Shown: in pieces, positions 909 to 57,696 of the stretch
How the letters are laid out: every line of letters begins with the position of its first letter
Position numbering within the stretch: the first letter of the stretch is position 1
Origin: Candidatus Hydrogenedens sp.
GTDB taxonomy: Bacteria > Hydrogenedentota > Hydrogenedentia > Hydrogenedentales > JAEUWI01
Assembly (NCBI GenBank): GCA_016125095.1
Contig: WGMK01000010.1
Span: 74,343 to 138,342 of the forward strand
DNA: 64,000 bases
Direction: 5' to 3'
Program-made: the position numbers and the translations under genes
Notes under the pieces: model-generated
The model's input: the letters and a program-made list of their open reading frames with translations, nothing else
Database searches by the model: none
Told to the model about the DNA's origin: nothing

Positions 909-3900
909 TCACACCGGCGCGTCGGCGAGAATCCATGCGGAAATAATGTCGAGGTCTTCGCCTTCGATGGTGCCGCCAAGCGGCATCTGCTCTCCGCTGC
1001 CGCCAGTCACGAGCGCCTGCGTTCCTTCCAGCTTGCGCCAGAGGTAGCTGTTCTCCAGCGACCCCGGCGTGATGCGGAGCATCTCCGCGTTGCTTGACGG
1101 CTGGCTCACCACGGCATTCACATCCGTCAGGTCGAGGCCGCCGAAGGTGCTGCCGATGTGGCAGCCCGAACAGTAGTTGTTCATCACCACCTGCACGTCG
1201 GCCGACGTCGGCCCAACGCAGGGTGCATCGGTGCCCGGTCCCGCGGCGAACCCGTCTTCCGTGCCGCACTCGACATGGTAGCCCAGGTTATTGAAGAACT
1301 GGATCGCGCGCAGCAGTTCCGACAGCGACAGCATCCAGTCGCGCGGGTTGTAGTCGCCGGTGTGCGGGGTGCATTGCTGCGCGCTCTCGTCGAAACCGAT
1401 CACATAGCCATCCTCGCCGGGCAGTTGGGTTTCCGCGCAGGCGAAGCCATCGGCGTTGAAGAACTGGATGATACGCAGCAATTCCGACAGATCCAGCAGG
1501 CCGTCCTGGTTGATATCCGCCGAAGAGAACAGCACATCGCCGCTGCCCTCGCCATCCACCTGACCTTCACCGCCGCCCTGGCCTTCGCCGTCGGGGCTGC
1601 CCTCGCCTTCGCCCTCGATGGGCAGTGGCACCAGCACCTGGCCCGAGACTCCGGTGAGCGTGACCGTGCTACTCCCCGGAACAAAGCCGCTCGCGTTTTC
1701 GATGCCCAGCGTGTAGCTGTTGCCGGCGATGGCATTCGCGCCGGGGAGCATCGACACGAGACAAACCAGTCCATCGCCGATCAGGTTCGGCGTCTGGCTC
1801 GAGTCCGTGATGACGATGCCGATTCGTCCTGCCGACACCGGGAAGGATTGTATACCCTTGCCCTGGCCATTAAGTGTGGGAGAGATGGACGCTCCGCCGA
1901 ATTCAAGCACGTTGGGATCGAACACAAGGTCGAAGCCGAGGACTTGAATTTCCGCGCCTTGGAGGTCCGCATTGATCGCGATGCCGCCGTCGGTACTTCC
2001 GTTGGAAGCGATTAGCGACGGCAGCGCTCCGCCACCTTCGCCATCCATGGCGCCTTCTCCATCCACCATACCTTCGCCGTCCACGACGCCCTCGCCCTCG
2101 GGCTGTCCTTCACCATCGGTCAGGCCTTCTCCCTCGCCCTCGGTCGCGAGTCCGCAGTCGATGTTCACCGGACACGTGACGTTTTCCAAAACCGCATCAA
2201 TTTGGGCAAGCGTCGTCGCGTTAAACACCAGCGGCGTTGCGTCCGTGAAGCTCGACGCCATGATCGTATCGTCTTGGCCAGCCGTCGCACCCAGGTTGGT
2301 TGCGATCGACCGTGCGGCTGAGAGCACGTCGATCGAACCGCCGGACAGCGGGAAGGCGGCATCCTGACGTACGGTCACCATCGCGCTGCCGGTGCACGGC
2401 TGGCCTACAAAAGCGAGGCTTGCCGTTGCGCCGTAGCTTACAAGCGCGGGACTGAAGTCGTGGAAGAGATGCGTCGTGGCATCCGACCGCTCGCTGAGAT
2501 TGAAATTGCGGTACGCATCCAGCGTCGTACTCGCATCGGGCTCTGTTCCAGACGTCACTTCGAACGGCGAAGGCGTGCTCCACGCGACAATCTGGCAGAC
2601 GTTCACCTCGATGTTGAGATCGCGCAAGATGATGGCTGCGGCCTCGTCGAGCACCGCTGTTACATAAGTGCGCGCGGCGAGGGCATCGCCGCCGAATTCC
2701 GACGCTATGAGCCGGTTCTCGATATCCGCAATCAAGTCGACCCGGTAGGGCGCGCTTCCTTCGCCGTCCAATGCGCCTTCGCCCTCCGCGAGCGGGCACG
2801 TCGGGCTGCCCTCGCCTTCGCCTTCCACGGGCGGTGCGGCAGCAACATCGTAGATATACACGGCACCCGATCGTCGCCCGACGGTCTTGTGGTAGGGCGC
2901 GCCCATGGCCGCTTCGTCGGTCGTCAGCGCGACATCCCAGCCGGCCCGGTCCAGCGCCACGCCGTCGCTGGCGTCCAGTTCATCGCCGGGCGTCCAGGTT
3001 CCGGCGCTCCGCGAAAACACATACGCGGCGCCACTCGTGTTGTCGGCGCCGTCCGAACGGTACGCGCCCACCAGGGCGGTATCGCCCAGCAACGCGACGC
3101 TCGTGCCGAACTCAAAAACCTGCTTGCCGGCATCCGGCACGAGCTTCTGCTGCTGAATCCAGTTGCCGTTGCAGTTGACGAACACGTAGGCCGCGCCGCT
3201 GTTCACCCCGGTCGCTTCGGCATCCGTCGTCGTGAAGATCAGTGTATTCCCCGACAGCGCGACGTCTTGGCCCAGTTTCGTGCTGGTGGCCGGATCCTCG
3301 ATGATCGCCCGCTGAGACAGTGCCCAAGTGCCGCCTATCCGCTCGAAGATATACACACCGCCCGTGTCGAAAAACTCCTCGTCTCGGTTCGGTGCGCTGA
3401 TGGCTGCGATATCGCCCGCAAGCGCCACACGGAAGCCGAAGCCGTCCTGGAAGCCCGGCGAGTCCAGCGTCAGCTTCTGCTGTTCGGTCCATACGCCCGC
3501 GTCGCGCGTGAACACATAGGCCGCACCCGCATTCGGTTGGCCTGCGTCGGCGGCGTTGGCGCCCGCGATGAGGGTGTCGCCCTCCAGTGCAAGGCCCGTT
3601 CCGAGCAGATCGACTGCCGCGCCGTCAGAGGCCGTGAGCTTCTGCTCCAGCGACCAGGCCACCCCGCTGCGGGTATACACATAAACGGCCCCGGCGTTCT
3701 CGCCGTTGTCGTCGTCGGCGGTCGCGCCTATGGCGAGCGTATCGCCGGAGAGCGCGACGGAGCGGCCGAAGCCCTGTGCGTGGGTGGAATCCGCCGCAGC
3801 GATGCGGGCCTGGAAATCCCAAGACTCGCCGGAACGCAGGTAGACGTAAACCACGCCGCGGCTGGCCTCGCTCGGCGCCCCAATGGCCAGCGTATCCCCA

Positions 3901-5150
3901 TCGACGGCCAATGCGCTGCCCAGTTCGGCGGCGTTGTCCGCGGTCAGGCGCTCTTCGAGGTCCCAGTTGGAGCCGCTTCGCTTGAATACATGCGCGCTAC
4001 CGGAGGTATCGCCCAATAAGCCGGCGCGCGGCGCGCCTGCGATTATTGTGCTTTCGTCGAGCGAGACGGAAAAGCCCAAACGGTCGCCAATGGAAGCCCC
4101 GGGCGAAACTGCGCGCTGTTGAAGCTGCCAGCTATCCGTCAGGTAAATGAAAACCGATACCGAACCGGCGCCATCGAAGGGAGCTGCCACGGCAATGGTC
4201 GTGTCTGTAAGCGTGACGCTGCTGCCGAAGCGTGATGCGGCCTCGGTGCCGGTGGGCAAGAGGATTTGTTCTTCGGAAAAGACGCCGCCACTCCGGCGGA
4301 AAACGTACGCGGCACCACCATCGGAGTCATTGCCCGACGCTCCGATCACGGCAAGGTCATTGGACAGGTCCAGCGATTCACCGAAGAAATCGAACGTGTC
4401 TGCATCGCTCGCCGTAAGTTTCTGGTCTTCGCTCCAAGACGAGCCAGCGCCGGTGAACACATAAACATTGCCCTGCCGCACGTTCTTCTGGCTTGCCCCT
4501 GCGAGAATCGTGGTGCCGGAAAGGGCCACGCTGCCGCCAAAGGCATCGCTCACCGAACCGTCGGATGCCGTCAGTTTCTTTTGCTCTGTCCAGACACCGC
4601 CGCTTCGCGTGAATACATAGGCGGCGCCGCGCTGGCTGGCATCGCCGGAGGCGCCTGCGACGAGCGTATCGCCCTCAATGCTCACACTGATTCCGAACCG
4701 GTTTCCCCCGCTACCGTCGCTCGCGGTGAGCACTTGCTGGAGTACCCATTCAAAGCCATCCCGGATGTACACATACACCTGGCCCGGTGCCGTGGGAGTC
4801 CCAGCGGCTCCCACTACAATCGTGGTATCGGTAAGGGCGACGCTGGTACCAAGGGATGTCAGCGTATCGGCATCGGAATCGAAGAGCTTCTGCTCCAGCG
4901 CCCAACTCGCTCCAGTCCGCAGAAAAACGTATGCAGCCCCTTCGCCCGAGAGTACGCTATCCTCGAAGGGGGCCCCGACAACGGCCCGGTCGCCCGCAAT
5001 CGCCGTGCTATACCCGAATTGATCGAAAGCCCCCGGATAGATTCCGCCGATCGCTTGTGTCTCTGTTTGCGTCACCGCAAGTGCCGGTACTGCAAATGCC
5101 GCAATAGCAACCAGGACCATGCATGTGAATGAAGCGCGCGGGATTCTCAT
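909..5150 (-). CDS. Giant secreted FG-GAP (integrin-alpha-like) repeat protein, 1413 aa. N-terminal signal peptide, about 13 repeats ending in GAAYVF, EGEGEG linkers, a possible cohesin-like beta-sandwich, a dockerin/EF-hand-like pair, and a C-terminal CxxCH (PSCyt1-like) motif
   Basis: ATG at 5150 with GAGAGG upstream. Signal peptide MRIPRASFTCMVLVAIAAFAVPALA. Recurrent FGxSVAL..GDTL.IGA...GAAYVF units. Low-complexity EGEGEG runs. DINQDGLLDLSELLRIIQFFN and DWMLSLSELLRAIQFFN segments. YCSGCHIGSTFGGLDLTD near the C-terminus. Confidence 0.85.
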   Translation of the reverse strand: MRIPRASFTCMVLVAIAAFAVPALAVTQTETQAIGGIYPGAFDQFGYSTAIAGDRAVVGAPFEDSVLSGEGAAYVFLRTGASWALEQKLFDSDADTLTSLGTSVALTDTTIVVGAAGTPTAPGQVYVYIRDGFEWVLQQVLTASDGSGGNRFGISVSIEGDTLVAGASGDASQRGAAYVFTRSGGVWTEQKKLTASDGSVSDAFGGSVALSGTTILAGASQKNVRQGNVYVFTGAGSSWSEDQKLTASDADTFDFFGESLDLSNDLAVIGASGNDSDGGAAYVFRRSGGVFSEEQILLPTGTEAASRFGSSVTLTDTTIAVAAPFDGAGSVSVFIYLTDSWQLQQRAVSPGASIGDRLGFSVSLDESTIIAGAPRAGLLGDTSGSAHVFKRSGSNWDLEERLTADNAAELGSALAVDGDTLAIGAPSEASRGVVYVYLRSGESWDFQARIAAADSTHAQGFGRSVALSGDTLAIGATADDDNGENAGAVYVYTRSGVAWSLEQKLTASDGAAVDLLGTGLALEGDTLIAGANAADAGQPNAGAAYVFTRDAGVWTEQQKLTLDSPGFQDGFGFRVALAGDIAAISAPNRDEEFFDTGGVYIFERIGGTWALSQRAIIEDPATSTKLGQDVALSGNTLIFTTTDAEATGVNSGAAYVFVNCNGNWIQQQKLVPDAGKQVFEFGTSVALLGDTALVGAYRSDGADNTSGAAYVFSRSAGTWTPGDELDASDGVALDRAGWDVALTTDEAAMGAPYHKTVGRRSGAVYIYDVAAAPPVEGEGEGSPTCPLAEGEGALDGEGSAPYRVDLIADIENRLIASEFGGDALAARTYVTAVLDEAAAIILRDLNIEVNVCQIVAWSTPSPFEVTSGTEPDASTTLDAYRNFNLSERSDATTHLFHDFSPALVSYGATASLAFVGQPCTGSAMVTVRQDAAFPLSGGSIDVLSAARSIATNLGATAGQDDTIMASSFTDATPLVFNATTLAQIDAVLENVTCPVNIDCGLATEGEGEGLTDGEGQPEGEGVVDGEGMVDGEGAMDGEGGGALPSLIASNGSTDGGIAINADLQGAEIQVLGFDLVFDPNVLEFGGASISPTLNGQGKGIQSFPVSAGRIGIVITDSSQTPNLIGDGLVCLVSMLPGANAIAGNSYTLGIENASGFVPGSSTVTLTGVSGQVLVPLPIEGEGEGSPDGEGQGGGEGQVDGEGSGDVLFSSADINQDGLLDLSELLRIIQFFNADGFACAETQLPGEDGYVIGFDESAQQCTPHTGDYNPRDWMLSLSELLRAIQFFNNLGYHVECGTEDGFAAGPGTDAPCVGPTSADVQVVMNNYCSGCHIGSTFGGLDLTDVNAVVSQPSSNAEMLRITPGSLENSYLWRKLEGTQALVTGGSGEQMPLGGTIEGEDLDIISAWILADAPV

Positions 5151-5286: not shown

Positions 5287-5324
5287 ACCAAAAACAAGGC
5301 GGCGGCGCCAAGTGACGCCGCCGC
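5287..5324 (-). terminator. Rho-independent terminator for the 5349..5567 gene (GC stem GCGGCGGCG/CGCCGCCGC followed by a T-tract on the minus strand)
   Basis: Plus strand reads accaaaaacaaGGCGGCGGCGccaagtgaCGCCGCCGC. On the minus strand the hairpin is followed by TTGTTTTTGGTT. Confidence 0.6.
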
Positions 5325-5348: not shown

Positions 5349-5567
5349 TCAGCTGGGGTCGATGGCGTTTCCGCATTGATTACAGGTACGCGTACGCGCG
5401 AAGCTCATCAGCAGCCACATGGGCAGCCAGATTCCGCAGGTGATTATCGTCCGCATCAATTCTTTCTTATGGTCTAGCGGTGCAACCGTGTAGGTCACCT
5501 CGCACTTGCAGCGGCTGCAATAGAGGGTCGGCGCATTTGATTCGAGAGGAAGCGTTTTTTCGCTCAT
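5349..5567 (-). CDS. Small zinc-ribbon membrane protein, LITAF-like (CxxC - hydrophobic hairpin - CxxC), 72 aa
   Basis: MSEKTLPLESNAPTLYCSRCKCEVTYTVAPLDHKKELMRTIITCGIWLPMWLLMSFARTRTCNQCGNAIDPS. The start is the internal ATG at 5567, preceded by GAAAGG. The two CxxC knuckles flank a hydrophobic stretch. Confidence 0.55.
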   Translation of the reverse strand: MSEKTLPLESNAPTLYCSRCKCEVTYTVAPLDHKKELMRTIITCGIWLPMWLLMSFARTRTCNQCGNAIDPS

Positions 5568-5685: not shown

Positions 5686-6033
5686 TCACAGTCGCAGGCG
5701 TCGTTGCTGCTCGAGAATACCGCGGCCGGTAATCGAATACGAGGCGTCTCTCGTAACCGAGACACACAAGGCCACCGGGGCTTCGTCCAGCGCGGCGCGC
5801 ATCAGCGCCGGGCCGGCTACACCGGGCAGTCCGGAGCCGTCTCCAGAGCCGCCCGGAATGGGGGCCACGGCCGCCGTGCCCCCGATACCATCCGCCGCCC
5901 AGAAGGCGCCCTGCGTGTCGTATAGCGGTTGTCCGGCGACGGCAACGCCGCAGCTCGCCGCAACGACAATGACGGCAATAATGGCGCACGCCCGGCGAAA
6001 TCCCGGTACGCTCTGGCTACTTATGGCGAACAT
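5686..6033 (-). CDS. Possible small hypothetical protein (about 115 aa) in the divergent intergenic region. Low confidence; it may be a spurious GC-rich ORF
   Basis: Internal ATG of the 5686..6372 ORF (MFAISSQSVPGFRRACAIIAVIVVAASCGVAVAG...). There is no clear SD and the composition is typical of GC-rich noise. Confidence 0.2.
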   Translation of the reverse strand: MFAISSQSVPGFRRACAIIAVIVVAASCGVAVAGQPLYDTQGAFWAADGIGGTAAVAPIPGGSGDGSGLPGVAGPALMRAALDEAPVALCVSVTRDASYSITGRGILEQQRRLRL

Positions 6034-6184
6034 GCGCGGGATCATGCGCCTGTTCCGCTGGCGTTTGCAACGTGCCTGCATCGTCTCCACAGGTGCGATT
6101 ATTTCTGCTATACCACTGAAAAAGATAGACTTAGCAGGTGCTTGCTTGACAACGGACATCGGGTCAGGTACAGTTTGAAGCCGA

Positions 6185-7564
6185 ATGTCGAACGGTAATC
6201 CAATAAATTTCTGTGTACTCGGCGGCGGCGGCGAGATCGGCGCTAGCTGCTTCGAAGTTTCCTGCAACGGGCACAGTATTCTGCTCGATTCAGGCACCCA
6301 CCCGAAGAAAGAAGGCCTCGAATCGCTGCCGGCGTTCAGCCTGCTTTCGCGCGCCCCCGACGCGGCACTCATCTCTCACGCCCATGTGGATCACTGCGGC
6401 TCGCTGCCGTATCTGCTGCGGCAGTTTCCGGGAGTGCGGTCCTTCGCCACGGTACCTACGGTGCGCCTTGTAGATCGCATGCTGCACAACAGCGTGTCGG
6501 TGATGAATACCCTGCGCAAGGAACGCGGTATCGAAGAGTATCCGCTCTACGAACACGAGGACGTCAGTTACGCCATGCGCCTCATGCGCGGGCAGGGCTA
6601 TCAGGAATGGTTCGACTTGCCCACGCGCGGCATCGAGACGAAGGCCTGTTTCAATCACGCGGGCCACGTGCTCGGCAGCGCCAGCGTGCTGCTCAAGTTT
6701 CCCGGCCACACCCTCTTCTACACCAGCGACATCTGCGAGACCGATCAGGAACTCATGTCGCGCTATTGCCCGCTTGATCGATCAGTCGAGATCGACACGC
6801 TGGTGATCGAAAGCACGCACGGCGCGGTGGACGATGAGCACGCGCGCGTCTACGAAGCCGAGATTCCCAAGCTGGCCGACGCCGTGGCGGGCGTGCTGCG
6901 CGGCGGGGGCGTGGCGCTGATTCCCTGCTTCGCCCTCGGGCGCACCCAGGAGATCACCAACATCATTGCGCGCCACCAGGAAGCGGGTCTCATCCCGCGC
7001 GCACCCATTTACGCCTCGGGCCTCGGCCGCGCCATCTACGAGATTTATGAGAAGTTTCCCGAGTATCTCTCGCCGAACGCGGAACTGCGGCCGCTGAACG
7101 ACTTCAAGCGCATCGGCAACGTGTGGAACCACGAAACGATGGAGAAGCTGCTCCACGAGCCCGGCATCATTGTGGCCACCAGCGGCATGATGCTCGAAAA
7201 CACGCCGAGCGCGCTGATTGCCGAGGCCCTGACCCGCGCCAATCACCACGGCATTTTCTTCGTCGGTTATCTCGACCACGAGACGCTCGGCTACAAGCTG
7301 TTGCATTCGCAGATTGGCGACAAGCTGCGTTACGGCCTCGGCCGCCAGCCGGTGGAGCGCAAGCTCGAGAACATCAAGCGTTTCCATTTCAGCGCCCATG
7401 CGCCCCGCAAGGCGCTACAGCAAGTGATCCATCACATCCGTCCGAAGAACGTCGTGTTTGTGCATGGCGACGCAGAGGCCATCCGGTGGATGCAGGACAA
7501 CGCGGCCAACGGCTGCGCGAATTTTGCGCCGACCATCGGCCAGACGATCACCCTCGAAGCCTGA
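6185..7564 (+). CDS. MBL-fold metallo-hydrolase of the beta-CASP / RNA-metabolising (CPSF/RNase J-like) type
   Basis: HAHVDHCG (HxHxDH) motif, a beta-CASP-type middle region and a C-terminal H motif (HGDAEAI). 459 aa. Confidence 0.8.
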   Translation: MSNGNPINFCVLGGGGEIGASCFEVSCNGHSILLDSGTHPKKEGLESLPAFSLLSRAPDAALISHAHVDHCGSLPYLLRQFPGVRSFATVPTVRLVDRMLHNSVSVMNTLRKERGIEEYPLYEHEDVSYAMRLMRGQGYQEWFDLPTRGIETKACFNHAGHVLGSASVLLKFPGHTLFYTSDICETDQELMSRYCPLDRSVEIDTLVIESTHGAVDDEHARVYEAEIPKLADAVAGVLRGGGVALIPCFALGRTQEITNIIARHQEAGLIPRAPIYASGLGRAIYEIYEKFPEYLSPNAELRPLNDFKRIGNVWNHETMEKLLHEPGIIVATSGMMLENTPSALIAEALTRANHHGIFFVGYLDHETLGYKLLHSQIGDKLRYGLGRQPVERKLENIKRFHFSAHAPRKALQQVIHHIRPKNVVFVHGDAEAIRWMQDNAANGCANFAPTIGQTITLEA

Positions 7565-7567: not shown

Positions 7568-8515
7568 ATGGCCAGCCAGCGCAATCCGCTCCTGCAAGCC
7601 CTGCTTTACAGCTTGACCCGCACCTACACGGGTATCATGGGGCTGCTGCAGATGCCCGCGGCGCGGGGCATCACCATTGCCATTGCGCGCGTGGCCCTGG
7701 CCCTGGTGCCAAGGCTGCACCGCGTGGGCATGGAGAACCTCGACCTTGCCTACGGCGACAGCCTCACGCTGGCGGAGAAGCGGCGCATTCTGCAGGACGC
7801 GATGGACAACCTGGCCATAGTGGCGGCCGAGTTCGCCCACGGGCCGCGGATGGCACGCAACGGTTTCAAGGACGTCGCCGAGGTCGAGGGGTGGGAACAC
7901 ATCGATCAATCCAAGGGCGCAATACTCATCTCGGGCCATCTTGGCAATTGGGAATGGTTCGCAGGGGCAATAGCGGTGTACTGCCCCAAGATGCTCGAAG
8001 TGGTGCGACCGCTCGATTTCCCGCCCATGAACCGCTATGTGGACAGCACGCGCCGCGCCACCGGCACGGAAACCCTCGACAAGTTCGCTGCCGCCAAGGA
8101 ATTGCTGACCCGCCTGAAAGAGGGCTGGTGCGTGGGCGTGCTGGTGGATCAGAGCCCCCGCGAGAGCGGCGCGCCCACGACGTACTTCGGGCGCGACTGC
8201 TGGACTACCGTGGCCCCGGCCATGCTGGCCGCCCGTACCGGATGTCCCGTGCATTTTGTTACGGTCGAGCGCCGCGCCGACAGCACCTATCACATCGTCG
8301 TGCAGCCGGCCATGCCCTTCCAGAAAACCCGCAACCTGATGGCCGACATGCAGGCCAACGCGCAGATGACGCAGGATACCCTCGAGGCCTTCGTGCGCCA
8401 GCATCCCGGTCACTGGCTCTGGTTCCACCGTCGTTGGAAACAGCGCCCCCGGCTCGCCGAGGAATGGAACAAGCGCCTCAAGCGCGTCGAAGAGAAGAAT
8501 AAGCCTGCGGAATAG
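7568..8515 (+). CDS. Lysophospholipid / lipid A biosynthesis acyltransferase family protein (LpxL/HtrB-like)
   Basis: The start lies 4 nt after the MBL stop. The HLGNWEW acyltransferase motif (HX4D-type region) is present, the protein is 315 aa, and the C-terminus is basic. Confidence 0.65.
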   Translation: MASQRNPLLQALLYSLTRTYTGIMGLLQMPAARGITIAIARVALALVPRLHRVGMENLDLAYGDSLTLAEKRRILQDAMDNLAIVAAEFAHGPRMARNGFKDVAEVEGWEHIDQSKGAILISGHLGNWEWFAGAIAVYCPKMLEVVRPLDFPPMNRYVDSTRRATGTETLDKFAAAKELLTRLKEGWCVGVLVDQSPRESGAPTTYFGRDCWTTVAPAMLAARTGCPVHFVTVERRADSTYHIVVQPAMPFQKTRNLMADMQANAQMTQDTLEAFVRQHPGHWLWFHRRWKQRPRLAEEWNKRLKRVEEKNKPAE

Positions 8516-8882: not shown

Positions 8883-10928
8883 CTACGCCGTCTGGGGTTT
8901 TTTCGTCTTTCCGTGGTGGCCGGATTCCGGATTCGCCGCCGCGCGTTTGGGCAGCAGCGTATCGCCCATCAGCCACAGCGCGAATCCGGCCAGCAGCACG
9001 ATGCCCTCGAAGCCCCAGAAGAGGAAGAGGTTGAACCACACGCCCTTCACGAAGCCGTAGGAGTGCAGGCCCACGCCGAGGTTGTTCACGCCCCACCACG
9101 AGAAGGTGACGATGATGGCCATGATCACGGCGCCCATGTTGATGCCGAGCTCCTTGATGTAGCCGCCCATCTTGGCGTGCAGCACGCAGAGGCTCCACAG
9201 GCAGATCATCAGCGCGCCGTTCTCCTTGGGGTCCCAGCCCCAGAAGCGGCCCCAGCTGTCGTTGGCCCAGATGCCGCCGAGAATGGTGCCCACCACGGAG
9301 AACAGCAGCCCGAAGCAGAGCACGCCGTAGGTCATCTTGGTCACGTTCTGGTAGAACTTGCGGTCGGCAATCCGGATGCGCAGCACGCGTCCGATGATGT
9401 AGATGTGCGCGATCGCACCCGCCAGCATGCCCGCGGCGTAGCCGAAGGTCACGGTGGTCACGTGGGTCGACAACCAGAAGTTGGTGTCGAGCACGGCGAT
9501 AAGCGCGGGCATGGTATCCACGCCTTCCTTCATCTCGTAGCGGTTCGCGAGGAACATGCCCGCCGTGCCCAGCACGGCTGCCAGCGCAATTACGATGCGC
9601 TCCTTGTTCATCCATTCGATGATGAGCGCCGTCGCCACCGAGCACGCCGTGATGAACAGCACCGTCTCGTACAGCGTCGATACCGGCGGCCGCTCGCGGA
9701 TGATGCAGCGGATGGTGATACCGACGATGAGCAGGATGGTCGGAACCAGCACGGAGGCCTGCGTCGCATAGCGCCACCAGCGGTTGTACGGGAACACCCA
9801 CGAGAGCGCCACGATGAAGAAGGAAATCAGGTACAGCACCTGGCTGTTGGGAATCCACTTCATCCGGTAGAAGGAAACCTCCAGCGGCACCTTGTCGTAC
9901 TCGCCGCGCAGGCTGGCCGCGGCAGTCACCTTGCTGTGGAATTGCGCGGCCATCTTCTTGAACGCGTCGCGGTCGTTCACGAGCCCGGGCAGACGCTCGA
10001 GCAGACCAAGCATCTCGATGGGATTGTTCGAGGCCGCGTCGAGGTCCCGCACGTTGAAGGCGCGCGTGGCCATATCGGCCGGGGTCATCCAGGCCTGCTG
10101 GCTCGGCTCGGGGGGCGGAATCAGCGCCATGCCGTGGGTCGGGTTCAAGACGAATTCCAGCTCGTCCATCACACCGGCGATGGCCTTCGCTTCCTGGTTT
10201 ACCCGTTCCGGCGTCAGGCTGGTGCCCTCTTCGCGCAGCGCCTTCAACACTTCCGGCGCGCGCATCAGCAGCATGCTCAGGCTCGCGCCTCCGCGGTCGG
10301 TCAGTGCCGCGCCCATCGCAGAATCGGCCGGCGCCGTGTACGTGCGCCGCGCGAAATCGAAGTAATGCAGAATCTGATCGTACTGCAGGAAATTCTCGGC
10401 GAGATTGATGATCTGCTGCTCGACCGTCGTGCGGTCCGCCTGTTCCTTCTGGCGGTAGGCGTTGTCGAGCTCGAAGAGCTTCTGCGCGCCCTTTGCGATT
10501 TCGTTGTACGAATAGCGCGCGCGCTTCTTGTCGCCCGGGTCGATGCCGATGGCCGCCACGGCCTCGTAGTTGTCCACGATGAACTGGTGGTAATCCGCCG
10601 CGATTTCCGGGTAGAAGAGGCTGTACAGCAGCCAGGCAACCGGCTCTTTGATCTTGCCTTCCTCGCCCAGGTCGAGCGACCACTTGCCGTTGATCTTCAG
10701 CAGCGCGAAGCGGGCATAGGTATCCAGCGGCTTTACGCGGCCGCCGTCCTGCACCGGCAGCGTGGCGAACAGGTCCAGCGTCTCCTGGTCCCAGGGTTCG
10801 TAGGTAACGACCTTCGGGGCGGCATCGTCCGCGCTCGCGGCATCGTCCGCCGCCGGGGCGTCTTGCGCCAGAGCGCTGCCGGCGCAGAGCAGGCCCAGAA
10901 CTACAAGGGCGTGACTAAGCTTTTTCAT
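8883..10928 (-). CDS. ccsA: Cytochrome c biogenesis protein CcsA/ResC (System II) with an unusual N-terminal signal peptide plus a periplasmic domain of about 330 aa
   Basis: WGRFWGWDPKENGAL tryptophan-rich WWD motif and multiple TM helices. Signal peptide MKKLSHALVVLGLLCAGSALA. ATG at 10928 with AAGAGG upstream. Confidence 0.8.
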   Translation of the reverse strand: MKKLSHALVVLGLLCAGSALAQDAPAADDAASADDAAPKVVTYEPWDQETLDLFATLPVQDGGRVKPLDTYARFALLKINGKWSLDLGEEGKIKEPVAWLLYSLFYPEIAADYHQFIVDNYEAVAAIGIDPGDKKRARYSYNEIAKGAQKLFELDNAYRQKEQADRTTVEQQIINLAENFLQYDQILHYFDFARRTYTAPADSAMGAALTDRGGASLSMLLMRAPEVLKALREEGTSLTPERVNQEAKAIAGVMDELEFVLNPTHGMALIPPPEPSQQAWMTPADMATRAFNVRDLDAASNNPIEMLGLLERLPGLVNDRDAFKKMAAQFHSKVTAAASLRGEYDKVPLEVSFYRMKWIPNSQVLYLISFFIVALSWVFPYNRWWRYATQASVLVPTILLIVGITIRCIIRERPPVSTLYETVLFITACSVATALIIEWMNKERIVIALAAVLGTAGMFLANRYEMKEGVDTMPALIAVLDTNFWLSTHVTTVTFGYAAGMLAGAIAHIYIIGRVLRIRIADRKFYQNVTKMTYGVLCFGLLFSVVGTILGGIWANDSWGRFWGWDPKENGALMICLWSLCVLHAKMGGYIKELGINMGAVIMAIIVTFSWWGVNNLGVGLHSYGFVKGVWFNLFLFWGFEGIVLLAGFALWLMGDTLLPKRAAANPESGHHGKTKKPQTA

Positions 10929-12135
10929 GAGACTGCCTCTTCTTCTGCGCGCGCAGGTAAATCGCGAGCCGTTGCAGAAAGTGGATGGTAAGCCCGATAC
11001 CGATGATGTAGCAGGCGTACTTGGGCCATTGGTCCGCAGGGTTCTTCACCACGGAGAACACCGACGCGATCGGCGCGCGCGGATTGGTGGGGTCCTCCAC
11101 GAAGGAGGCCTGGAAGAAGGTGAATCCCTTGTGGCGGAGCGGTTCATTCATCTTGATTTCGACATCGCGCGAGGCATTGCCCTCGGTCATCGTCACGCGG
11201 CTTTCGAAATTGCTGGCCATGCCCGTGCGCGGGTGCTTCTGGTGGATGAACTTGTTCAGGGTAATCCGGAACGGCACGGGGAAGCGGTCATGCCGTAGGT
11301 CGATGGCGTAGCGCTGTCCCTGCACGGTCACGATCCACGGTGCCGCGGCCATGCCCCAGAGCAGGCCCACATGCGCGTCGCCGCCCTGCATCGTCGAAGC
11401 CGCGCCATGCGCCGAAGCCGCCGCGCCCGAGGCGTCCGCCGGGCGTTCCATCACCGTGGCGATCACGCCGGCCAGGTTGCGCTCGGCATCCTTCTGCATT
11501 TCCATCGGCTGCAGAATGACGCCGTCCACGCCCATCGCCATGATGGGCGGGGTCTGCTGCGGGGCGCAGTTGGGCATGTAGCCCTCAAGCAGCAGCGTGA
11601 AGGGCAGTTTTTCGGCGAAGAACGTACGGGTGTCCGAGGGGCCCATGTGCACGAATTCCTCGCCGGGAATCGTATAGGTCATCGGCGGGTCGGTGTCGAG
11701 CGAGACGATCTTGATGTTCCAGTCGTAGTAGCTCTGGAAGTGGTCGTCGCTTTCGCCCTCGTACAGGGTCATATGGCCGCTGGTCGAGAACTCATAGGTG
11801 ACGAAACCCGACACCAGCAGCAGCAGAATGCCGCCGTGGGCGATGAGCATGCCCGGCCGCGTCCAGCTCTTCGGCGCGCGCACAATGGCGCCGAGCGACA
11901 TGTTGATGAACAGCAGCACCATCAGCAGGTACACGCCGGGCAGCGGCAGGTGGAACCAGTCGTTGAATTCGTGAATCACGAACACCGACTCGAAGTACTT
12001 GCGCTGCACCTCGTAGAGGCCGGAGTCCACCTGCTCGATGGTACCGAAGAAGGTCAGCAACAAAAGGAAGAACAGCAGCACGCAGGCCAGGCCGTACGAG
12101 GCAAGGAAATTGACTACTCGTTTCAATATGTGCAC
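10915..12135 (-). CDS. ccsB: Cytochrome c biogenesis protein ResB/CcsB (System II)
   Basis: GTG start at 12135. N-terminal TM helix, large periplasmic domain and C-terminal TM helices, with ResB-like similarity. Overlaps ccsA by 14 nt. Confidence 0.75.
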   Translation of the reverse strand: MHILKRVVNFLASYGLACVLLFFLLLLTFFGTIEQVDSGLYEVQRKYFESVFVIHEFNDWFHLPLPGVYLLMVLLFINMSLGAIVRAPKSWTRPGMLIAHGGILLLLVSGFVTYEFSTSGHMTLYEGESDDHFQSYYDWNIKIVSLDTDPPMTYTIPGEEFVHMGPSDTRTFFAEKLPFTLLLEGYMPNCAPQQTPPIMAMGVDGVILQPMEMQKDAERNLAGVIATVMERPADASGAAASAHGAASTMQGGDAHVGLLWGMAAAPWIVTVQGQRYAIDLRHDRFPVPFRITLNKFIHQKHPRTGMASNFESRVTMTEGNASRDVEIKMNEPLRHKGFTFFQASFVEDPTNPRAPIASVFSVVKNPADQWPKYACYIIGIGLTIHFLQRLAIYLRAQKKRQSHEKA

Positions 12136-12168: not shown

Positions 12169-13377
12169 TTAGTGTATCGAGGCGCAGAACGCGCGGAAAT
12201 TGTCCCGCTGCGCCGCAACTTCGGCTTCCGGTCCGACCATCTTCACAAAGAGCGCCTGCGCATCCGTCACGCGCGCGGTGCCCAACATCATATAGCCCGC
12301 CGAGGCGCCCCCGCTCATCCCGGTATATTCGCCTGTGATTTCGATAATCGGCGAGGGCACGCCCGCGATATCCACGGTTTCGAGGGCCGCGATGGCTGCG
12401 CTGTCCAGCGCGGGCTGCCCCATCTGGCCGCGCCAGCGGTTCAGATTTGATTCCAAGCCGCCGCCCGTGCCGCCCAGAACCGCCACATAGCACTCGGTGT
12501 TCGGGCTGATATTGAACGTAACCGAACGCATCGGGCGGTCGCCGGCATTTTCCCAGCCGGCTGGCACTTCGTATTGCACGTTCGATGCGTCGATGGAAGC
12601 GCCCGAGCCCGACGGTTCCATGCCCGCTTCCGGCACCGGGGGAGTAGTCGGCTCCACCGCCGGGGTCGCCGGCGACGCCGCGGCCGCTGTAGCGCTCAAT
12701 CCGCCGGATTCCATAATGGACTGACAGAACTCATTGAATTGCGCCAACTGGTCGGCGAGCACGGCCTTCGGGCCGGTCATCTTCACAAAATAGGCACGGC
12801 CCTGGTCGATAAGAATCAGGCCGTACATCATGTAATCCGGCGCGGCCTCGGTACCCATGCCGGTGTAGGCCCCCTCGTACATGAGGAACTTTGCGCTCTT
12901 GAGCAGCAGCGGCTTTTCGGGAATCGCTCCCACCTGATCGTCGGTAATCGGCTCCAAGCCGATCTGGCGTCGCCACCGGTTGATGTTTTCGGTCAGGCCG
13001 CCGCCATCACCAGGCAGCACGGTGAAGTAGCACTCCGCCTCGGGGTGTCCCGAAACCTGCAGGTTGGCCAGGCGCATGCTCGTGGGAGCAAGTTCTTCCC
13101 ATCCCGACGGTACCTGCCAGGTGAACTCCGGCGCGGAGGAATCCGCACTCATGTCGCCTCCGGCCATCGGCGCGGCGCCCATGCCGGGCTTCACGTCGCC
13201 CACCTGAATGGGCTGTAGCCGCATGCGGTCCATCGTGCTCATGTCGCGTGCGGCCGTTTCTTCGCCGTTGGCCGGCCGCACGTCGGTGATTTCCTGTGTC
13301 GGCGTGTATTCTTTGCTGCAGCCGAAGGGAAGCGCTGCGAGCAGAACAAGACTACAAATAATTCGGAATTGTCGCAT
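12169..13377 (-). CDS. Lipoprotein with an internal tandem duplication (two domains of about 110 aa), at the head of the ccsB-ccsA operon
   Basis: Internal ATG at 13377 (MRQFRIICSLVLLAALPFGC lipobox). The duplicated units are ..TWQVPSGWEELAPTSMRLANLQVSGHPEAECYFTVLPGDGGGLTENINRWRRQIG.. and ..QYEVPAGWENAGDRPMRSVTFNISPNTECYVAVLGGTGGGLESNLNRWRGQMG.. Confidence 0.65.
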   Translation of the reverse strand: MRQFRIICSLVLLAALPFGCSKEYTPTQEITDVRPANGEETAARDMSTMDRMRLQPIQVGDVKPGMGAAPMAGGDMSADSSAPEFTWQVPSGWEELAPTSMRLANLQVSGHPEAECYFTVLPGDGGGLTENINRWRRQIGLEPITDDQVGAIPEKPLLLKSAKFLMYEGAYTGMGTEAAPDYMMYGLILIDQGRAYFVKMTGPKAVLADQLAQFNEFCQSIMESGGLSATAAAASPATPAVEPTTPPVPEAGMEPSGSGASIDASNVQYEVPAGWENAGDRPMRSVTFNISPNTECYVAVLGGTGGGLESNLNRWRGQMGQPALDSAAIAALETVDIAGVPSPIIEITGEYTGMSGGASAGYMMLGTARVTDAQALFVKMVGPEAEVAAQRDNFRAFCASIH

Positions 13378-13634
13378 TACCAGACTCCTGACCCGGCGAG
13401 GGTATCCCGCTGAACAATGGCGGGTCTTCTGTAGATATTCGCCGCACATCTTTAATGGTGTCGCGGACACTCGGTAAGTCTACTCAGCGTCGGCGCTAGG
13501 GTGCAACGTAAACAGGCTTTTCAAGTGTTTACAGCGCGACGCATTCCTTCAAGGGCGTGATCCGCAGTTTCCATTAGACGCGGTCCGCTTTGGCGTGCTT
13601 ACAAGACCGCGTAACCCCGGCGAGGGTGTCGTTG

Positions 13635-28825: not shown

Positions 28826-28980
28826 GCCGGTAAGTTCGGAGCAGTGTGCTTGTGGCATTGAGTGGGCGTCCGGCGGGTCGAACGCGCTGGACGGGTGGAT
28901 TATCCTGCACAGGCTTCCGGGGCGCGTCGCGATGAGGGACCGTGGCCCCGCCGGGCAGCTTAATTTTTAGGAGTGACTTC

Positions 28981-31900
28981 ATGCACCAGGGATTCAAGGG
29001 GTTGCGCGGGGCGGCCATGCTGCTGCTTTGCACGGCACTCGCGGGCATACTGAGCGGCTGTCCTACGGCCAACGTGGGCTTGGCCTTGCTGCCCAGTCCG
29101 CAGCAGCTTGATTTCGGCACGGGGTCGACCACGATTACCCTCTCGGTGAAAACGAACTTCAGCACCTCCACGCCGGAGCCGCTCGTTATCAAGGCCAGCG
29201 ATCCGTGGATCGTGGTGGCCCGATGCACCGACCCCGCCGAGAACTGCCTATCGGGCTCTCTCACGGAAATGACGCTGGTCTCCATCAGCGTGGACCGGAC
29301 CAAGACGGCCGCCGGCACCAACCGCGGCTCGGTGCGTCTCGAGTGCGGCGGCGCTACCCCCGTGATTGTGCCGGTGATCGCCGAAGATATCCTGCAGGCG
29401 GACTTCGAACTGAGCCGACGGCAGGTCGGCGTGGGCGAAGCCGTCAATTTCAGCAATACCAGCGTAGGCACTGCGCAGTCGGGTCCCATCACCGCCTATC
29501 TCTGGAATTTTGGCGACGGTACGACCAGCACGCAGCGCACGCCCTCGCACGTGTACGGTCGCCCGGGTGTGTACGACGTGACCCTGACGGTGACGGCCGC
29601 CAACGGCACTGAGACCATTGTCCGCGAAGACTTCGTGGTGGTAGGCGATCCGCAGCCCGCTCCCGATTTCAGCGGCACGCCCCGCGAAATCTTTGTGGGC
29701 GATGTGGTGGCTTTTACCGATAAGACCGCGACGGATGCCGGACGCGTTATCAGCCGCCTCTGGGACTTCGGCGACGGCAAGACCTCGACCGCGCTGAACC
29801 CCACGCATCGCTACGACAGCCCCGGTCTGAAGACCGTGGCGTTGACCGTGAGCACCGAATTCGCCACCGCGAGCGGCTCGAAGCCGGGCTATGTGCTGGT
29901 GAAGCGCAAGGTGCCGCCGGTGGCGGCCATTGCCGTCAGCACGGTGAACCCGCTCGTGGGCGAGGCCATCCAGTTCAACGACGCCAGCGAGCCGGGCACC
30001 AAGCCGGCTTCCGCCTGGATTTGGGACTTCGGTGATGGCACGGTGAGTACCAAGCAGAATCCGACGCACGTGTATTCGCGCGCCGGCACCTACACGGTGA
30101 AACTCACAGTGAGCACGCCGCACGGTTCCGACTCCACAACCATTTCGCTTTCCCTGAACTTCCAGGCGCCCAGCGTGAACTTCGAGGCGCTCAACGTCAA
30201 TCCGTCCACCTGTTCCGATCCCATCGCCTGCCCCGAGGCCGTGCAGTTTGTCGATCGCACGAATCCGGGCAGCGGCACAATCGTGAGTTGGGCGTGGGAT
30301 TTCGGCGACGGCGGCACCAGCAATCAGCGCAACCCGAAGCACGGCTACAAGGCGGTCGGCACGTACACTGTCAGCCTGACCGTGAAGACCACGGCGCCGC
30401 AGAACAACCTGGGCACCGAGACGAAGCAGAACTACATCGTTGCCGTGAACCCGCCGCGTCCGGGCTTCCGTATCGGCCAGCGCAGCCCCTTCACCTCGAG
30501 CCCCGTTTCATTTATTAACGAGACCCTCATCGGCACCGAGACTGACGTGAGCTACGCCTGGGATTTCGACGGTCTCGACACGACCACGACCGACCGCAGC
30601 ACCGATGTGAACCCGACCTATCAATACACGCAGGCGGGCACCTACAACGCGCGCCTGACGGTCTCCACGGCCACGCGCAGTGAGGTCTTCTCGATGCCGG
30701 TGATCGTGGATGGCGTCACCACGCCGAAGTTCACGGCTGCGCCCCGCGCCGCGACCACGGCGACCATCGTGCAATTCACTGATACGACCGAGGCAGGCCG
30801 CTCGGGCGCCGGCTCCGGCAATGTGCCGATTTCGGCCTACCGCTGGGAATTCGGCGATGGCACCATCGCCACCACGCGTAATCCCACGCACCAGTATCAG
30901 GAGCCGGGCACCTACAACGTGAAACTCACGGTGACCTACAAGCACTCGGGTTCGGGCGACACCTTCACCGCGAACAAGGTCGAGACCGGATTCATCACGG
31001 TGACCTTCCCGACGCCGCCGACGGCCGACTTCTCGATTACGAACAGCGACTGCATCTTTACGGGCGACACCGTGAATTTCGCCGCCGTGACTGCGCCGGA
31101 AATCGATAGCTACGAATGGAACTTCGGCGATCCGGGCAGCCCGAACAACACCGACAGTGCCAGTTCGCCGAGCCACACCTACTCTGGCCCGGGCGTGTAC
31201 ACGGTGACCCTGACGGTCACCGACCTCGACCTGCGTGCTCCGTTCAATACCGACACCACGCAATTCGACCTGGTGGTCGCGGACTTCACCGACCTCGATA
31301 TGTACGTGCGCACGCCGGACCCGCGCTTCACGTTCAACCAGGTAGGGAATTCGATCCCGATTACCATCGGCCTGACGACGGCCGGCACGGCCTTCAACCT
31401 GTACATGGTTTCGGGCACCTGGCGCACGAACGCGGATATTACCGTCGGCGCCGGTATTCAGGACTACATCGCCTGGAAGCACAACCTCACCATCTTCGAG
31501 CCGGTGAATCGCACTGAAGACACGGCGCTCCTGTTTGTCAGCGGCGGCAGCCGTACCGACGACCCGCCGACGGAAGCCGACCTGCGCGACCTGAGCCTGG
31601 CCGAGATCGCCGTCGCGACCGCGTCCCCGATGGTCATCCTGGACGACGTGCCCGCGCAGCCCATCGATTTCATCGGCGATACGGGCGGCGCTAAGGTCGA
31701 AGACGCCATCATCGCGTGGAGCTTCAACAAGTACCTGACCGATTTCCGCGCGGGTCGCCCGGTTTACCCGGCGGCGGCGGAACCCTGGCCGGTCGTGCAG
31801 ACCATGGCCCGCGCGGCCGTACGTGCCATGGATGTGGCGCAGGCGTTCTCGGCCTCGCAGGGCAATCGCATCGAAGACTTCGTGGTCACGGGCGCGTCCA

Positions 31901-32757
31901 AGCGCGGTTGGACGACCTGGCTGACGGGTATCACCGACTGCCGCGTGAAGGCCATGGTGCCCATCGTCATCGATGTGCTTAACATGGACCAGAACCTGGC
32001 GCACCACAAGGCGGTCTACCGCACGCAGCCGACGGGCACCTCGGGCGGCTTTTCGACCGCCGTGCAGGATTACACCGACCTCGGCGTGTTCGACCGCTTG
32101 GTGCCGGACGCCAATGGGAACCTGCCCGCCGACGCACTTGGTCTGCTCGCGCAGGTCGACCCCTACGAATACCGCAACCGGGTGATCATTCCGAAGTACC
32201 TGATCAATGCCAGCGGCGATGAGTTCTTCCCGAGCGATTCGTCGCAGTATTATCTCGACGATCTGCTCGGCGAGACGAACATCAGCTACATACCGAATGT
32301 CGGCCATAGCTTGGGCAATGACGCGGCGGATCCGTTCAACGAGGACAGCGCCTCGTTCATGCTCGCAAGCTGGTACCTCGCCATCCTGCAAGACGTGCCG
32401 CGTCCGAGCATCAGCTCGGCCTTCCCGGACGACAACACGATCGTCGTCAGCCTCGACAACCCGGCGGCGGGCACGCCCACGGTGCGCCTGTGGAGCATCA
32501 CCAACCCGACCCACCGCGATTTCCGCAAGGCCATTACGGATTCGCTGGGCCGCAGCTGGACCTCGACGCAGTTGGCGCGCCAGGACGACGGCACCTACAT
32601 CGGCACGGTCAATACACCGGTTTCCGGTTGGACCGCGTTCTACATTCAGGTGCGCTTCCCCAACCCGGTCATTCCGGCGGTTATCGTGCCCGATGCGCCC
32701 ACGCCCGAGTTTGTTTTCTCGACACCAATCCGGGTGGTGCCCGACGTGCTGCCCTAG
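28981..32757 (+). CDS. Lipoprotein with about 8 PKD domains fused to a C-terminal PhoPQ-activated-pathogenicity-related (PqaA-like) alpha/beta hydrolase domain
   Basis: ATG at 28981 with TAGGAG upstream. MHQGFKGLRGAAMLLLCTALAGILSGC lipobox. Repeated WxFGDGT.S....P.H.Y...G.Y.V.LTV units. C-terminal GASKRGWTTW (GxSxG) region with PhoPQ_related-like similarity. Confidence 0.8.
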   Translation: MHQGFKGLRGAAMLLLCTALAGILSGCPTANVGLALLPSPQQLDFGTGSTTITLSVKTNFSTSTPEPLVIKASDPWIVVARCTDPAENCLSGSLTEMTLVSISVDRTKTAAGTNRGSVRLECGGATPVIVPVIAEDILQADFELSRRQVGVGEAVNFSNTSVGTAQSGPITAYLWNFGDGTTSTQRTPSHVYGRPGVYDVTLTVTAANGTETIVREDFVVVGDPQPAPDFSGTPREIFVGDVVAFTDKTATDAGRVISRLWDFGDGKTSTALNPTHRYDSPGLKTVALTVSTEFATASGSKPGYVLVKRKVPPVAAIAVSTVNPLVGEAIQFNDASEPGTKPASAWIWDFGDGTVSTKQNPTHVYSRAGTYTVKLTVSTPHGSDSTTISLSLNFQAPSVNFEALNVNPSTCSDPIACPEAVQFVDRTNPGSGTIVSWAWDFGDGGTSNQRNPKHGYKAVGTYTVSLTVKTTAPQNNLGTETKQNYIVAVNPPRPGFRIGQRSPFTSSPVSFINETLIGTETDVSYAWDFDGLDTTTTDRSTDVNPTYQYTQAGTYNARLTVSTATRSEVFSMPVIVDGVTTPKFTAAPRAATTATIVQFTDTTEAGRSGAGSGNVPISAYRWEFGDGTIATTRNPTHQYQEPGTYNVKLTVTYKHSGSGDTFTANKVETGFITVTFPTPPTADFSITNSDCIFTGDTVNFAAVTAPEIDSYEWNFGDPGSPNNTDSASSPSHTYSGPGVYTVTLTVTDLDLRAPFNTDTTQFDLVVADFTDLDMYVRTPDPRFTFNQVGNSIPITIGLTTAGTAFNLYMVSGTWRTNADITVGAGIQDYIAWKHNLTIFEPVNRTEDTALLFVSGGSRTDDPPTEADLRDLSLAEIAVATASPMVILDDVPAQPIDFIGDTGGAKVEDAIIAWSFNKYLTDFRAGRPVYPAAAEPWPVVQTMARAAVRAMDVAQAFSASQGNRIEDFVVTGASKRGWTTWLTGITDCRVKAMVPIVIDVLNMDQNLAHHKAVYRTQPTGTSGGFSTAVQDYTDLGVFDRLVPDANGNLPADALGLLAQVDPYEYRNRVIIPKYLINASGDEFFPSDSSQYYLDDLLGETNISYIPNVGHSLGNDAADPFNEDSASFMLASWYLAILQDVPRPSISSAFPDDNTIVVSLDNPAAGTPTVRLWSITNPTHRDFRKAITDSLGRSWTSTQLARQDDGTYIGTVNTPVSGWTAFYIQVRFPNPVIPAVIVPDAPTPEFVFSTPIRVVPDVLP

Positions 32758-40896: not shown

Positions 40897-41155
40897 AGTC
40901 ACCAAAGTATAAAACATCCGCGCGAACACTATCCGACATGCAAAGTCACGCGGCGCGGAGCGCCGTGCGGGGGCGTTACACCGCAGAGCGTTGTAACGAG
41001 GGTAGGAGCGGTGTAACGAGAATCAAAATCATATTCGCAACTTCCGGATTCGTAGGTAGTTAGGGGCGCGTGTCGTGGCATTCTTGCCTCGGAAAATGCT
41101 ACGCTCGGGGGCCGCGTTGGTTGGCACGCGGGCGATTTGCACCGGCCGGAGCATT

Positions 41156-45427: not shown

Positions 45428-45432
45428 GGGCG

Positions 45433-46401: not shown

Positions 46402-46928
46402 GCCTCCAACGCTTTCCGCGCCGCTTGAAACACCGCCAGCACTTCCGTGCTGAACAGCACGAACCGCACCCGCTCGATCCCGTCGTGTCGCTCCAGCGCG
46501 GTGGCGGTCTCCCGCAGCGCAATGGCAGCGGCTGCACCGTGCGGATACCCGTAGACCCCGCAGCTGATGGCAGGAAACGCGAGGGTGCGCAGGCCGTGCT
46601 CGGCCGCCACCTCGATGCTGCGGCGGTAGCAGCTGGCGAGCAATTCCGGTTCGCCGCTTTCGCCGCCGCGATAGATGGGGCCGACGGTGTGGATCACATG
46701 CCGCGCGGGCAGGTTGCCGCCGTTGGTGATCTTCGCGTCGCCCGTGCGGCATCCGCCCAGCGCGCGGCATTCTTCGAGGATGGCAGGTCCGCCCGCCCGA
46801 TGGATTGCACCATCAACGCCGCCACCGCCCAGCAGCGTCTCGTTCGCCGCGTTGATGATCGCGTCGACCGCCTCCAGCGTAATGTCGCCCCGGGTGATTT
46901 CAATGCGGTTAGCGATTGACTTCGTCAT
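46398..46928 (-). CDS. Macro-domain protein (O-acetyl-ADP-ribose deacetylase, YmdB/MacroD-like)
   Basis: Internal Met start ([47 protein letters not shown]). Its stop overlaps the GT2 stop on the opposite strand. Confidence 0.8.
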
Positions 46929-57576: not shown

Positions 57577-57696
57577 ACGTGAACCTGCCCTGTGTTGTGC
57601 GCGCCAGACCGGCGCGCGGATTCCCCTGTGCCCGGCGCCGACCACCGCACCCCCGGCGTTCAACGCTTTTCACACTATACCACGATTCCGGTTCCC

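Follow-up and report, generated by a model that had tools for sequence, protein, structure and literature searches.

What kind of protein joins FG-GAP repeats, dockerin-like segments and a CxxCH motif in one polypeptide, and does that motif belong to a genuine cytochrome c? The question arises from a gene in a 64,000-nucleotide stretch of contig WGMK01000010.1 of Candidatus Hydrogenedens sp., phylum Hydrogenedentota (this whole stretch is referred to as the window), where a single long open reading frame (ORF) runs uninterrupted for 4.2 kb. As proposed in an original prediction made from the DNA letters, the ORF list and its translation give a secreted product of 1413 amino acids (aa), hereafter the target, with a signal peptide that is evident on inspection. 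The target carries, in order, the signal peptide, 14 FG-GAP_2 blades, a metzincin domain that lacks its zinc site, a divergent cohesin, a module of Ca-type loop and helix, and a class I cytochrome c domain (Table 1), and we hold these domain assignments to be very likely correct. The explanation that accounts best for the whole, and that we favour with reasonable confidence, is a Sec-exported modular protein with attachment modules and a terminal heme relay or sensor. The target is a new combination of known domain kinds, and a rare one; its most original element is the module, which no family model describes and which is massively expanded in Hydrogenedentota.

The cytochrome c domain and the cassette that carries it

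The PSCyt1-like heme c site of the original prediction held up, although it had been placed at the very end of the protein: the target contains a single CxxCH, which stands where a cytochrome c fold begins, 83 residues short of the C-terminus. An exhaustive HMMER search with the cytochrome domain retrieved 2194 cluster representatives at E ≤ 0.001, 307 of them at E ≤ 1e-10. In an alignment of 42 cytochrome relatives (A1) that are 37-49% identical to the target, C1327 (C16), C1330 (C19), H1331 (H20) and M1389-P1390 (M78, P79) are invariant; some members of the family have CxxxxCH in place of CxxCH (e.g. P0105, P0110). When the family profile was compared with the PDB, nearly all matches were c-type cytochromes, including hydrazine synthase alpha, c6, c-552 and FoxE, and the Met-Pro pair aligned on 'AMPAF', the segment that bears the ligand in cytochrome c6. 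An AlphaFold2 (AF2) model of the domain, with a predicted local distance difference test score (pLDDT) of 95.2 and a predicted template modelling score (pTM) of 0.87, has the class I order of an N-terminal helix (residues 5-15), CxxCH, loops and a C-terminal helix (86-97). The original prediction would have fallen if, in an HMM scan, the CxxCH lay outside any cytochrome-like fold and the dockerin-like segments did not score; as the motif is part of a genuine cytochrome c fold, the prediction is not refuted.

Both the fold and the arrangement of motif, helices and distal Met are thus those of a class I cytochrome c, with scores that stay under the thresholds of the curated hidden Markov models (HMMs). 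Among the 42 relatives, 26 match PSCyt1 and 20 match Cytochrome_CBB3 at E ≤ 0.01, and it is on this transitive evidence that the target is assigned to the PSCyt1/class I cytochrome c family. That the target binds heme is predicted from its residues and, in our judgement, likely.

The family occurs as single-domain proteins, as multi-copy chains, as parts of PSCyt1-PSD-PSCyt3 proteins and in fusions to MopE, CHRD, Big_7 and other extracellular repeats, so fusion to non-redox extracellular modules is common. Lipobox-like leaders were seen in 34 of 59 small family members. At one other locus, two small lipoprotein-like cytochromes (L083:659-1396 and 1487-2005) carry a PSCyt1-like and/or a second class I domain on long (Asp-Thr)n linkers, and illustrate how often members of the family are tethered through low-complexity spacers. 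With the 'planctomycete cytochrome c' PSCyt1 (PF07635) the target shares CxxCH followed by GGL.L, PG...SYL..K..G and MP...L....I..WI..GA. The domains closest to it (e.g. P0049, E 3e-40) are parts of classical PSCyt1-PSD-PSCyt3 proteins, whereas the target has no PSD, PSCyt2 or PSCyt3 and bears the domain at the C-terminus of a Hydrogenedentota FG-GAP/cohesin protein. FoxE (diheme, Fe(II)-oxidizing; PDB 5MAB) and PccH (monoheme, from Geobacter; PDB 4RLR) are small soluble periplasmic proteins; the target, by contrast, has one heme domain, which closes a 1413-aa protein of six modules. No foxYZ-like neighbours were found near the target.

A second protein contains the same C-terminal half. P0053 (844 aa, JGI metagenome 3300013132) shares the cassette of dead metzincin, cohesin, module and cytochrome with the target at 57-67% identity, and has Cys-rich Ephrin-receptor-like repeats in place of the propellers. 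Since this protein from a different metagenome has the same four-domain order at that level of identity, the cassette is real. A module followed by a cytochrome was found in these two proteins in all, and neither the genome scan described below nor a metagenome scan, both of them run with narrow patterns and not exhaustive, added a further fusion; as the patterns were narrow, the rarity of the fusion is a lower-bound statement. The other match of the metagenome scan, a small diheme lipoprotein, was unrelated and was set aside. The architecture had been called unusual, and this stands for the placing of a cytochrome after the module. It does not extend to the remainder: FG-GAP_2 repeats, linker and module recur together in the phylum, with 14 blades, Ig/PKD domains and module in L072 and seven blades, an Ig-like domain and module in L023, and PSCyt1 fusions are common. 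Literature searches on PSCyt1 and on Hydrogenedentes dockerins and cohesins turned up no account of either the module or the architecture, nor do genomic surveys of the phylum mention them. Oxidases of the caa3 type are common in Hydrogenedentota, and nearly 70% of the genomes in one survey of the phylum have a caa3-type oxidase or a cytochrome bd oxidase (PMC11406978).

The dockerin-like module and the cohesin-like domain

The homologues found with aa 1203-1413 form two sets that do not overlap, and one of these matches the module alone. These module-only homologues come mostly from Candidatus Hydrogenedentes and have varied N-terminal domains (cohesin, DUF5011, P-domain, Ig, GDSL lipase). 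The module and the cytochrome were modelled separately; a joint MAFFT alignment that included the cohesin misplaced module repeats onto the cytochrome. Each repeat of the module consists of a loop, a helix (SELLR.IQFFN) and a beta-hairpin (GTEDG[FY]A), with the overall consensus H.AD.[DN].[DN]..I.LSELLR.IQFFN.GG.HC..GTEDG[YF]APG and with the Cys pairs 1238/1260 and 1295/1311 in the target. Two dockerin/EF-hand-like segments had been predicted here. SELLR.IQFFN does occur twice, at aa 1222-1231 and aa 1275-1284, and the canonical D.N.DG..D..E loop precedes the first copy only. No Pfam or NCBIfam model covers the module: EF-hand_6/5/1 reach 18.6-19.8 bits on it, under their cut-offs, and a module profile (A3) gave sub-significant matches to the PDB, largely to EF-hand proteins. 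Compared with a type I dockerin (PF00404), the module of the target has two clear repeats and a canonical first loop, but not HMM membership.

When one genome of each GTDB species was scanned with two narrow peptide patterns, at least 226 stretches of the module were confirmed. The best 80 of these 226 come from about 15 metagenome-assembled genomes (MAGs), with at least 21 loci in one MAG. Several of the source MAGs are labelled 'uncultured Nitrospirales', which may reflect a labelling issue or a wider distribution. In 103 ORFs, of which the target itself accounts for two, the module lies 20 residues or less from the C-terminus in 88 and right after an N-terminal leader in about 10; only in the target is it followed by a cytochrome. 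The tail of the second repeat holds a pair of cysteines in 14 rows of the alignment, none in 12 and a single one in 3, and this pair-or-none pattern fits a disulfide and hence an extracytoplasmic protein. In loci L002-L080 the module's passengers include FG-GAP_2, beta-helix, PhoPQ_related plus PASTA and Ig-like domains, in dozens of large secreted proteins per MAG (for example L072:893-4621, L023:3-2033 and L034:3598-6297). The module, absent from Pfam and NCBIfam, marks a very large set of secreted Hydrogenedentota proteins, and a model for it would improve annotation and give a handle on the secretome.

The window encodes a second module-bearing secreted protein at 55102-57663 on the minus strand, which has 853 aa, an Ig_3 domain and a Glu/Gly-rich linker of about 190 aa. 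Its module is at the very C-terminus (hmmsearch E 3e-34), and the protein resembles an ORF of L025.

Upstream of the module, the cohesin-like beta-sandwich of the original prediction was recovered, if indirectly. The region aa 1038-1178 has no Pfam match at E ≤ 10 and stays under the gathering threshold of Cohesin (PF00963), whereas a two-sequence profile of the target's domain, which includes IQVLGFDLVFDPNVLEF at aa 1068-1084, matched an alignment of 11 Hydrogenedentota cohesin segments (A6) with an hhalign probability of 97.2% (E 3.6e-11, 129 columns). Eight of those 11 segments match PF00963 over its full length (best E 1.4e-9), and BLASTP aligned the domain with P0007 at E 5e-4. By this transitive evidence aa 1042-1175 are classed as a divergent cohesin. 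Run over the ORFs of 80 genome loci and of the window, an HMM built from A6 detected no cohesin; as the target's own domain escaped it too, this HMM is too weak for a census.

P0007 belongs to a recurrent Hydrogenedentota type of about 250-280 aa with a signal peptide, one cohesin and the module, seen also in P0010, P0014, P0015, P0017, P0022, P0024 and P0026. If the module binds cohesin, such proteins could self-associate head to tail. On the sequence evidence, we see an even chance that the module is a cohesin-type or protein-protein attachment device.

Propellers, a protease-like domain and the rival explanations

The N-terminal half of the target had been described as about 13 FG-GAP repeats, each ending in GAAYVF. 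The repeats belong to FG-GAP_2 (PF14312), which they match as tandem copies at 487.2 bits against a gathering threshold of 23; they number 14, are 48-55 aa long and end in G-x-[AVS]-[YSH]-[VI]-[FY], with the exact GAAYVF in six. We infer from their number that they would form two 7-bladed beta-propellers, and the related protein L072 has 7+7 FG-GAP_2 blades with an Ig domain between them. The 14 strong repeats are a feature that the target shares with integrin-alpha-like propeller proteins of this family. Its sister FG-GAP_2 proteins in Hydrogenedentota have the same 7- or 14-blade units and the same C-terminal module, whereas the dead metzincin, cohesin or cytochrome was present in no other FG-GAP_2 protein examined. 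Glu/Gly-rich linkers stand between all domains except the dockerin-like module and the cytochrome, which abut directly. The EGEGEG linkers of the original prediction are three EGEG-type linkers, with none at this last junction.

The domain at aa 800-1003, overlooked in the original prediction, passes the Reprolysin_5 cut-off of 27 bits, with a score of 32.8 bits when taken alone and of 27.1 bits within the whole protein. A single-sequence PDB search aligned it with acutolysin A (1BSW), a member of the reprolysin/adamalysin (M12B) metzincins, over about 170 residues that take in the Met-turn as well as the NLG from the zinc motif. HExxHxxGxxH is lost: H142, E143 and H146 of acutolysin A correspond to R947, S948 and T951 of the target, where the position of the third His is deleted. 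The target keeps the Met-turn, with the CIM of acutolysin A aligned to TIM (M964). Because the zinc motif is replaced and its third His deleted, the domain should be catalytically inactive. The corresponding domain of P0053, 57% identical, has degenerated in the same way (ARGIAFNLGATS), so that it looks like a maintained pseudoprotease, a further bacterial example of its kind. Homologue searches with aa 800-1178, linker included, gave 8000 low-complexity candidates and none that scored, and a search with the domain alone gave nothing; both missed the target itself and P0053. A galectin match of the combined target and P0053 profile in the PDB was discarded as spurious.

In the reading that we favour, System II (CcsA/ResB) would attach one heme covalently to Cys1327 and Cys1330 after Sec export, with His1331 and Met1389 as axial ligands. 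The 14 blades would fold as two 7-bladed propellers and, together with the dead protease-like domain, would provide non-catalytic, adhesin-like surfaces for ligand binding. The cohesin and the dockerin-like module would mediate Ca2+-dependent attachment to other Hydrogenedentota proteins that bear such modules, and this attachment would keep the target in a surface assembly. There the heme domain, joined to the attachment module without a linker, could act as a one-electron relay or a redox sensor, by analogy with the soluble FoxE and PccH cytochromes and with those members of its own family that are tethered single-domain lipoproteins. To any specific redox partner we would assign a probability far below one half.

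Several observations weigh against this reading. The second loop of the module, DYNPRDWMLSLSE, departs from the Ca-loop consensus, being one residue longer and without the central Asp/Gly pattern. The Pfam scan put forward with the original prediction, which FG-GAP_2 passes, returned no match to Cohesin or to Dockerin_1 (PF00404) at E ≤ 10, and the cytochrome stayed under the curated cut-offs, at 21.5 against 27 for Cytochrome_CBB3 and at 16.7 against 22 for PSCyt1. A Foldseek comparison of the model with the PDB was not significant (best E 0.14), although the matches listed were nearly all cytochromes c. No cohesin was detectable in the other module-bearing ORFs, from 79 genome loci, with the A6 HMM, which was also blind to the cohesin of the target. 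The ccsA/resB genes are not co-transcribed with the target and do not share an operon with it. Heme occupancy, Ca2+ binding and localization are predictions, and no partner, redox substrate or outer-membrane export route was identified.

The likeliest alternative makes the module a lineage-specific sorting or anchoring tag, that is, a dedicated export signal or a binder of a cell-envelope polymer, with the target one of its many cargoes and the cytochrome an unrelated add-on. Its C-terminal position in 88 of the 103 ORFs, behind low-complexity linkers, its restriction to a lineage in which it is massively expanded (at least 226 stretches, at least 21 loci in one MAG), the great diversity of its passengers and the want of a detectable cohesin in the genome-locus ORFs would all suit such a tag. 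A strictly terminal sorting signal would not, however, tolerate the roughly 10 copies that follow an N-terminal leader or the internal copies of the target and P0053, and is disfavoured for that reason. The module also lacks a hydrophobic anchor and bears a canonical loop of the EF-hand type, and many small proteins are exactly a cohesin plus the module. We therefore favour binding of a dockerin-analogous kind, given the independence of position, the Ca-type loop and the many proteins of about 260 aa with cohesin and module, and we consider the sorting tag rather unlikely. A propeller with a C-terminal class I cytochrome c is also a well-known enzyme architecture, which invites comparison with quinohemoprotein dehydrogenases or cytochrome cd1, where a propeller active site passes electrons to cytochrome c. 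The closest solved structure, FoxE, pairs with FoxY, a propeller protein that contains pyrroloquinoline quinone (PQQ; PMC10654088), and one A1 relative bears a TrAA12-like domain. The blades of the target, however, are FG-GAP_2 and match neither PQQ nor any other catalytic propeller family in the Pfam scan, and between them and the cytochrome lie three folded domains and three flexible linkers, a distance of more than 540 residues. Sister proteins of the phylum have the same propellers without the cytochrome, P0053 has the cytochrome cassette without propellers, and a redox enzyme of this type is very unlikely indeed.

Scores under the Pfam thresholds would also be expected of a degenerate cytochrome fold that is hemeless, or holds a non-redox heme, and serves structure or binding only. 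Very little has been written on the function of PSCyt1-type domains, which is experimentally unknown, and the domain occurs in many multidomain proteins that do not look redox-active (MopE repeats, Big_7, CHRD). All the heme-contacting residues, two Cys, His and Met-Pro, are nevertheless invariant across the 42 relatives despite identities of 37-49% to the target, and the genome has System II maturation genes, so that we regard this possibility as very unlikely. It is hardly credible that the long ORF is a pseudogene or a chimera created in assembly. Such a reading could be suggested by the records: the exact protein is on record from Logan assembly SRR10063241 only, where an independent contig gives the same 1413-aa product, and the NCBI protein set of the MAG includes the neighbours MBI1318497-99 (locus tags GC168_06070 and others) and not the exact sequence of the target, for which the annotation may have used another start or a pseudogene call. 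The frame, on the other hand, is open throughout, its G+C content at third codon positions (GC3) of 0.75 is close to that of neighbouring genes, and a DNA repeat scan found no long repeats able to mis-join. A single tandem array, 18 bp x3.4 at 2035-2096, occurs in the DNA of the gene; as this is a short array within linker 2, the protein repeats are old and diverged and not an artefact of assembly. Each segment of the protein has homologues, so the features are not due to chance; family-conserved residues are found in every domain, and the four-domain cassette occurs in the independent JGI metagenome.

If heme is attached and the module assembles as the favoured reading has it, the target would exemplify a cohesin/dockerin-like system that brings a c-type cytochrome into a surface complex, linking assembly of the cellulosome type with extracellular electron transfer in a phylum without cultured, characterized surface biology. 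No known principle would be overturned, since each part is of a known kind. A wider version appears doubtful to us: in it, dozens of large secreted proteins in each genome would use an EF-hand-derived and so far unmodelled 'pseudo-dockerin' to dock onto divergent cohesins across the lineage and build a non-cellulosomal surface network, on which the target and P0053 would station a c-type heme outside the cell as a scaffold-mounted electron relay or redox sensor.

The gene and its surroundings

The features of the gene and of its nearest relevant neighbours are collected in Table 1. The signal peptide, the paired cysteines of the module and the lipobox-like leaders of small family members mark the target as a Sec-exported, extracytoplasmic protein, probably at the cell surface.

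Table 1. Positions of the features of the target gene and its surroundings in the window
Feature	Positions	Residues	Strand	Basis or remark
Whole gene	909..5150		minus	ATG start, 1413 aa + stop (ORF list, translation)
Sec-type signal peptide MRIPRASFTCMVLVAIAAFAVPALA, then VT	5076..5150	aa 1-25	minus	By inspection: basic n-region, hydrophobic core, cleavage site between ALA and V
14 FG-GAP_2 repeats	2850..5072	aa 27-767	minus	Pfam PF14312, E 9.4e-150, 14 stretches
EGEG-type linker 1	2754..2849	aa 768-799	minus	
Reprolysin/M12B-like metzincin domain, active site destroyed	2142..2753	aa 800-1003	minus	Reprolysin_5
Degenerate zinc-site stretch RSIATNLGATA replacing HExxHxxGxxH	2280..2312	aa 947-957	minus	Acutolysin A alignment
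EGEG-type linker 2	2028..2141	aa 1004-1041	minus	Holds the 18 bp x3.4 tandem repeat
Divergent cohesin-type beta-sandwich	1626..2027	aa 1042-1175	minus	hhalign vs A6
EGEG-type linker 3	1545..1625	aa 1176-1202	minus	
Hydrogenedentota 'dockerin-like' module	1215..1544	aa 1203-1312	minus	~110 aa, two ~48-aa repeats
Predicted canonical EF-hand-type Ca2+ loop DINQDGLLDLSE	1482..1517	aa 1212-1223	minus	Pattern D-x-N-x-D-G-x-x-D-x-x-E read from sequence
C-terminal class I (PSCyt1/FoxE-like) monoheme cytochrome c domain	912..1214	aa 1313-1413	minus	101 aa
Predicted heme-attachment motif CSGCH (Cys thioethers, His proximal ligand)	1158..1172	aa 1327-1331	minus	Alignment A1, model
Met1389, predicted distal heme ligand (Met-Pro)	984..986		minus	Invariant in A1; aligns with cytochrome c6
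Terminator-like hairpin	5299..5324		minus	11 bp, 10 G-C, T-run; just upstream of start codon
ccsA-like (8883-10928) and resB-like (10915-12135) genes, System II cytochrome c maturation	8883..12135		minus	Pfam Cytochrom_C_asm, ResB

The presence of ccsA/resB means that System II cytochrome c maturation is available in the genome. These genes had been predicted to lie downstream; in the target's own orientation they are upstream, 3.7 kb away on the same strand, and two plus-strand genes (6185-7564 and 7568-8515; beta-CASP hydrolase and lipid A acyltransferase) stand between. Immediately upstream of resB/ccsA and on the same strand, an ORF of 433 aa (12169-13470, minus strand) with a lipoprotein-like leader has an internal duplication, its two halves of about 150 aa sharing WE..........N.......EC...VL.G.GGGL..N.NRWR.Q.G; it has no Pfam match and no CxxCH.

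Nearer to the target, the strong hairpin separates the gene from two small upstream ORFs that were called in the Logan assembly (5349-5567 and 5686-6045, both on the minus strand), and suggests that the target is transcribed alone. The ORF of 72 aa has two CxxC pairs around a hydrophobic segment and that of 119 aa a signal-like N-terminus; neither has a Pfam match.

Elsewhere in the window, an ORF at 41075-43456 on the plus strand combines AAA_22 and PG_binding_1 and recalls secretion-system assembly factors of the ExeA/GspA type, which may be relevant to the exit of large surface proteins from the periplasm. A CxxCH at aa 79 of ORF 44509-46770 was rejected, the N-terminus there having the look of an out-of-frame, Arg-rich artefact. 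On the plus strand at 28942-32757, a protein of 1271 aa contains seven PKD domains and a PhoPQ-activated pathogenicity-related domain (PF10142), a domain that also occurs in another Hydrogenedentota genome (L034), there in fusion with the dockerin-like module.

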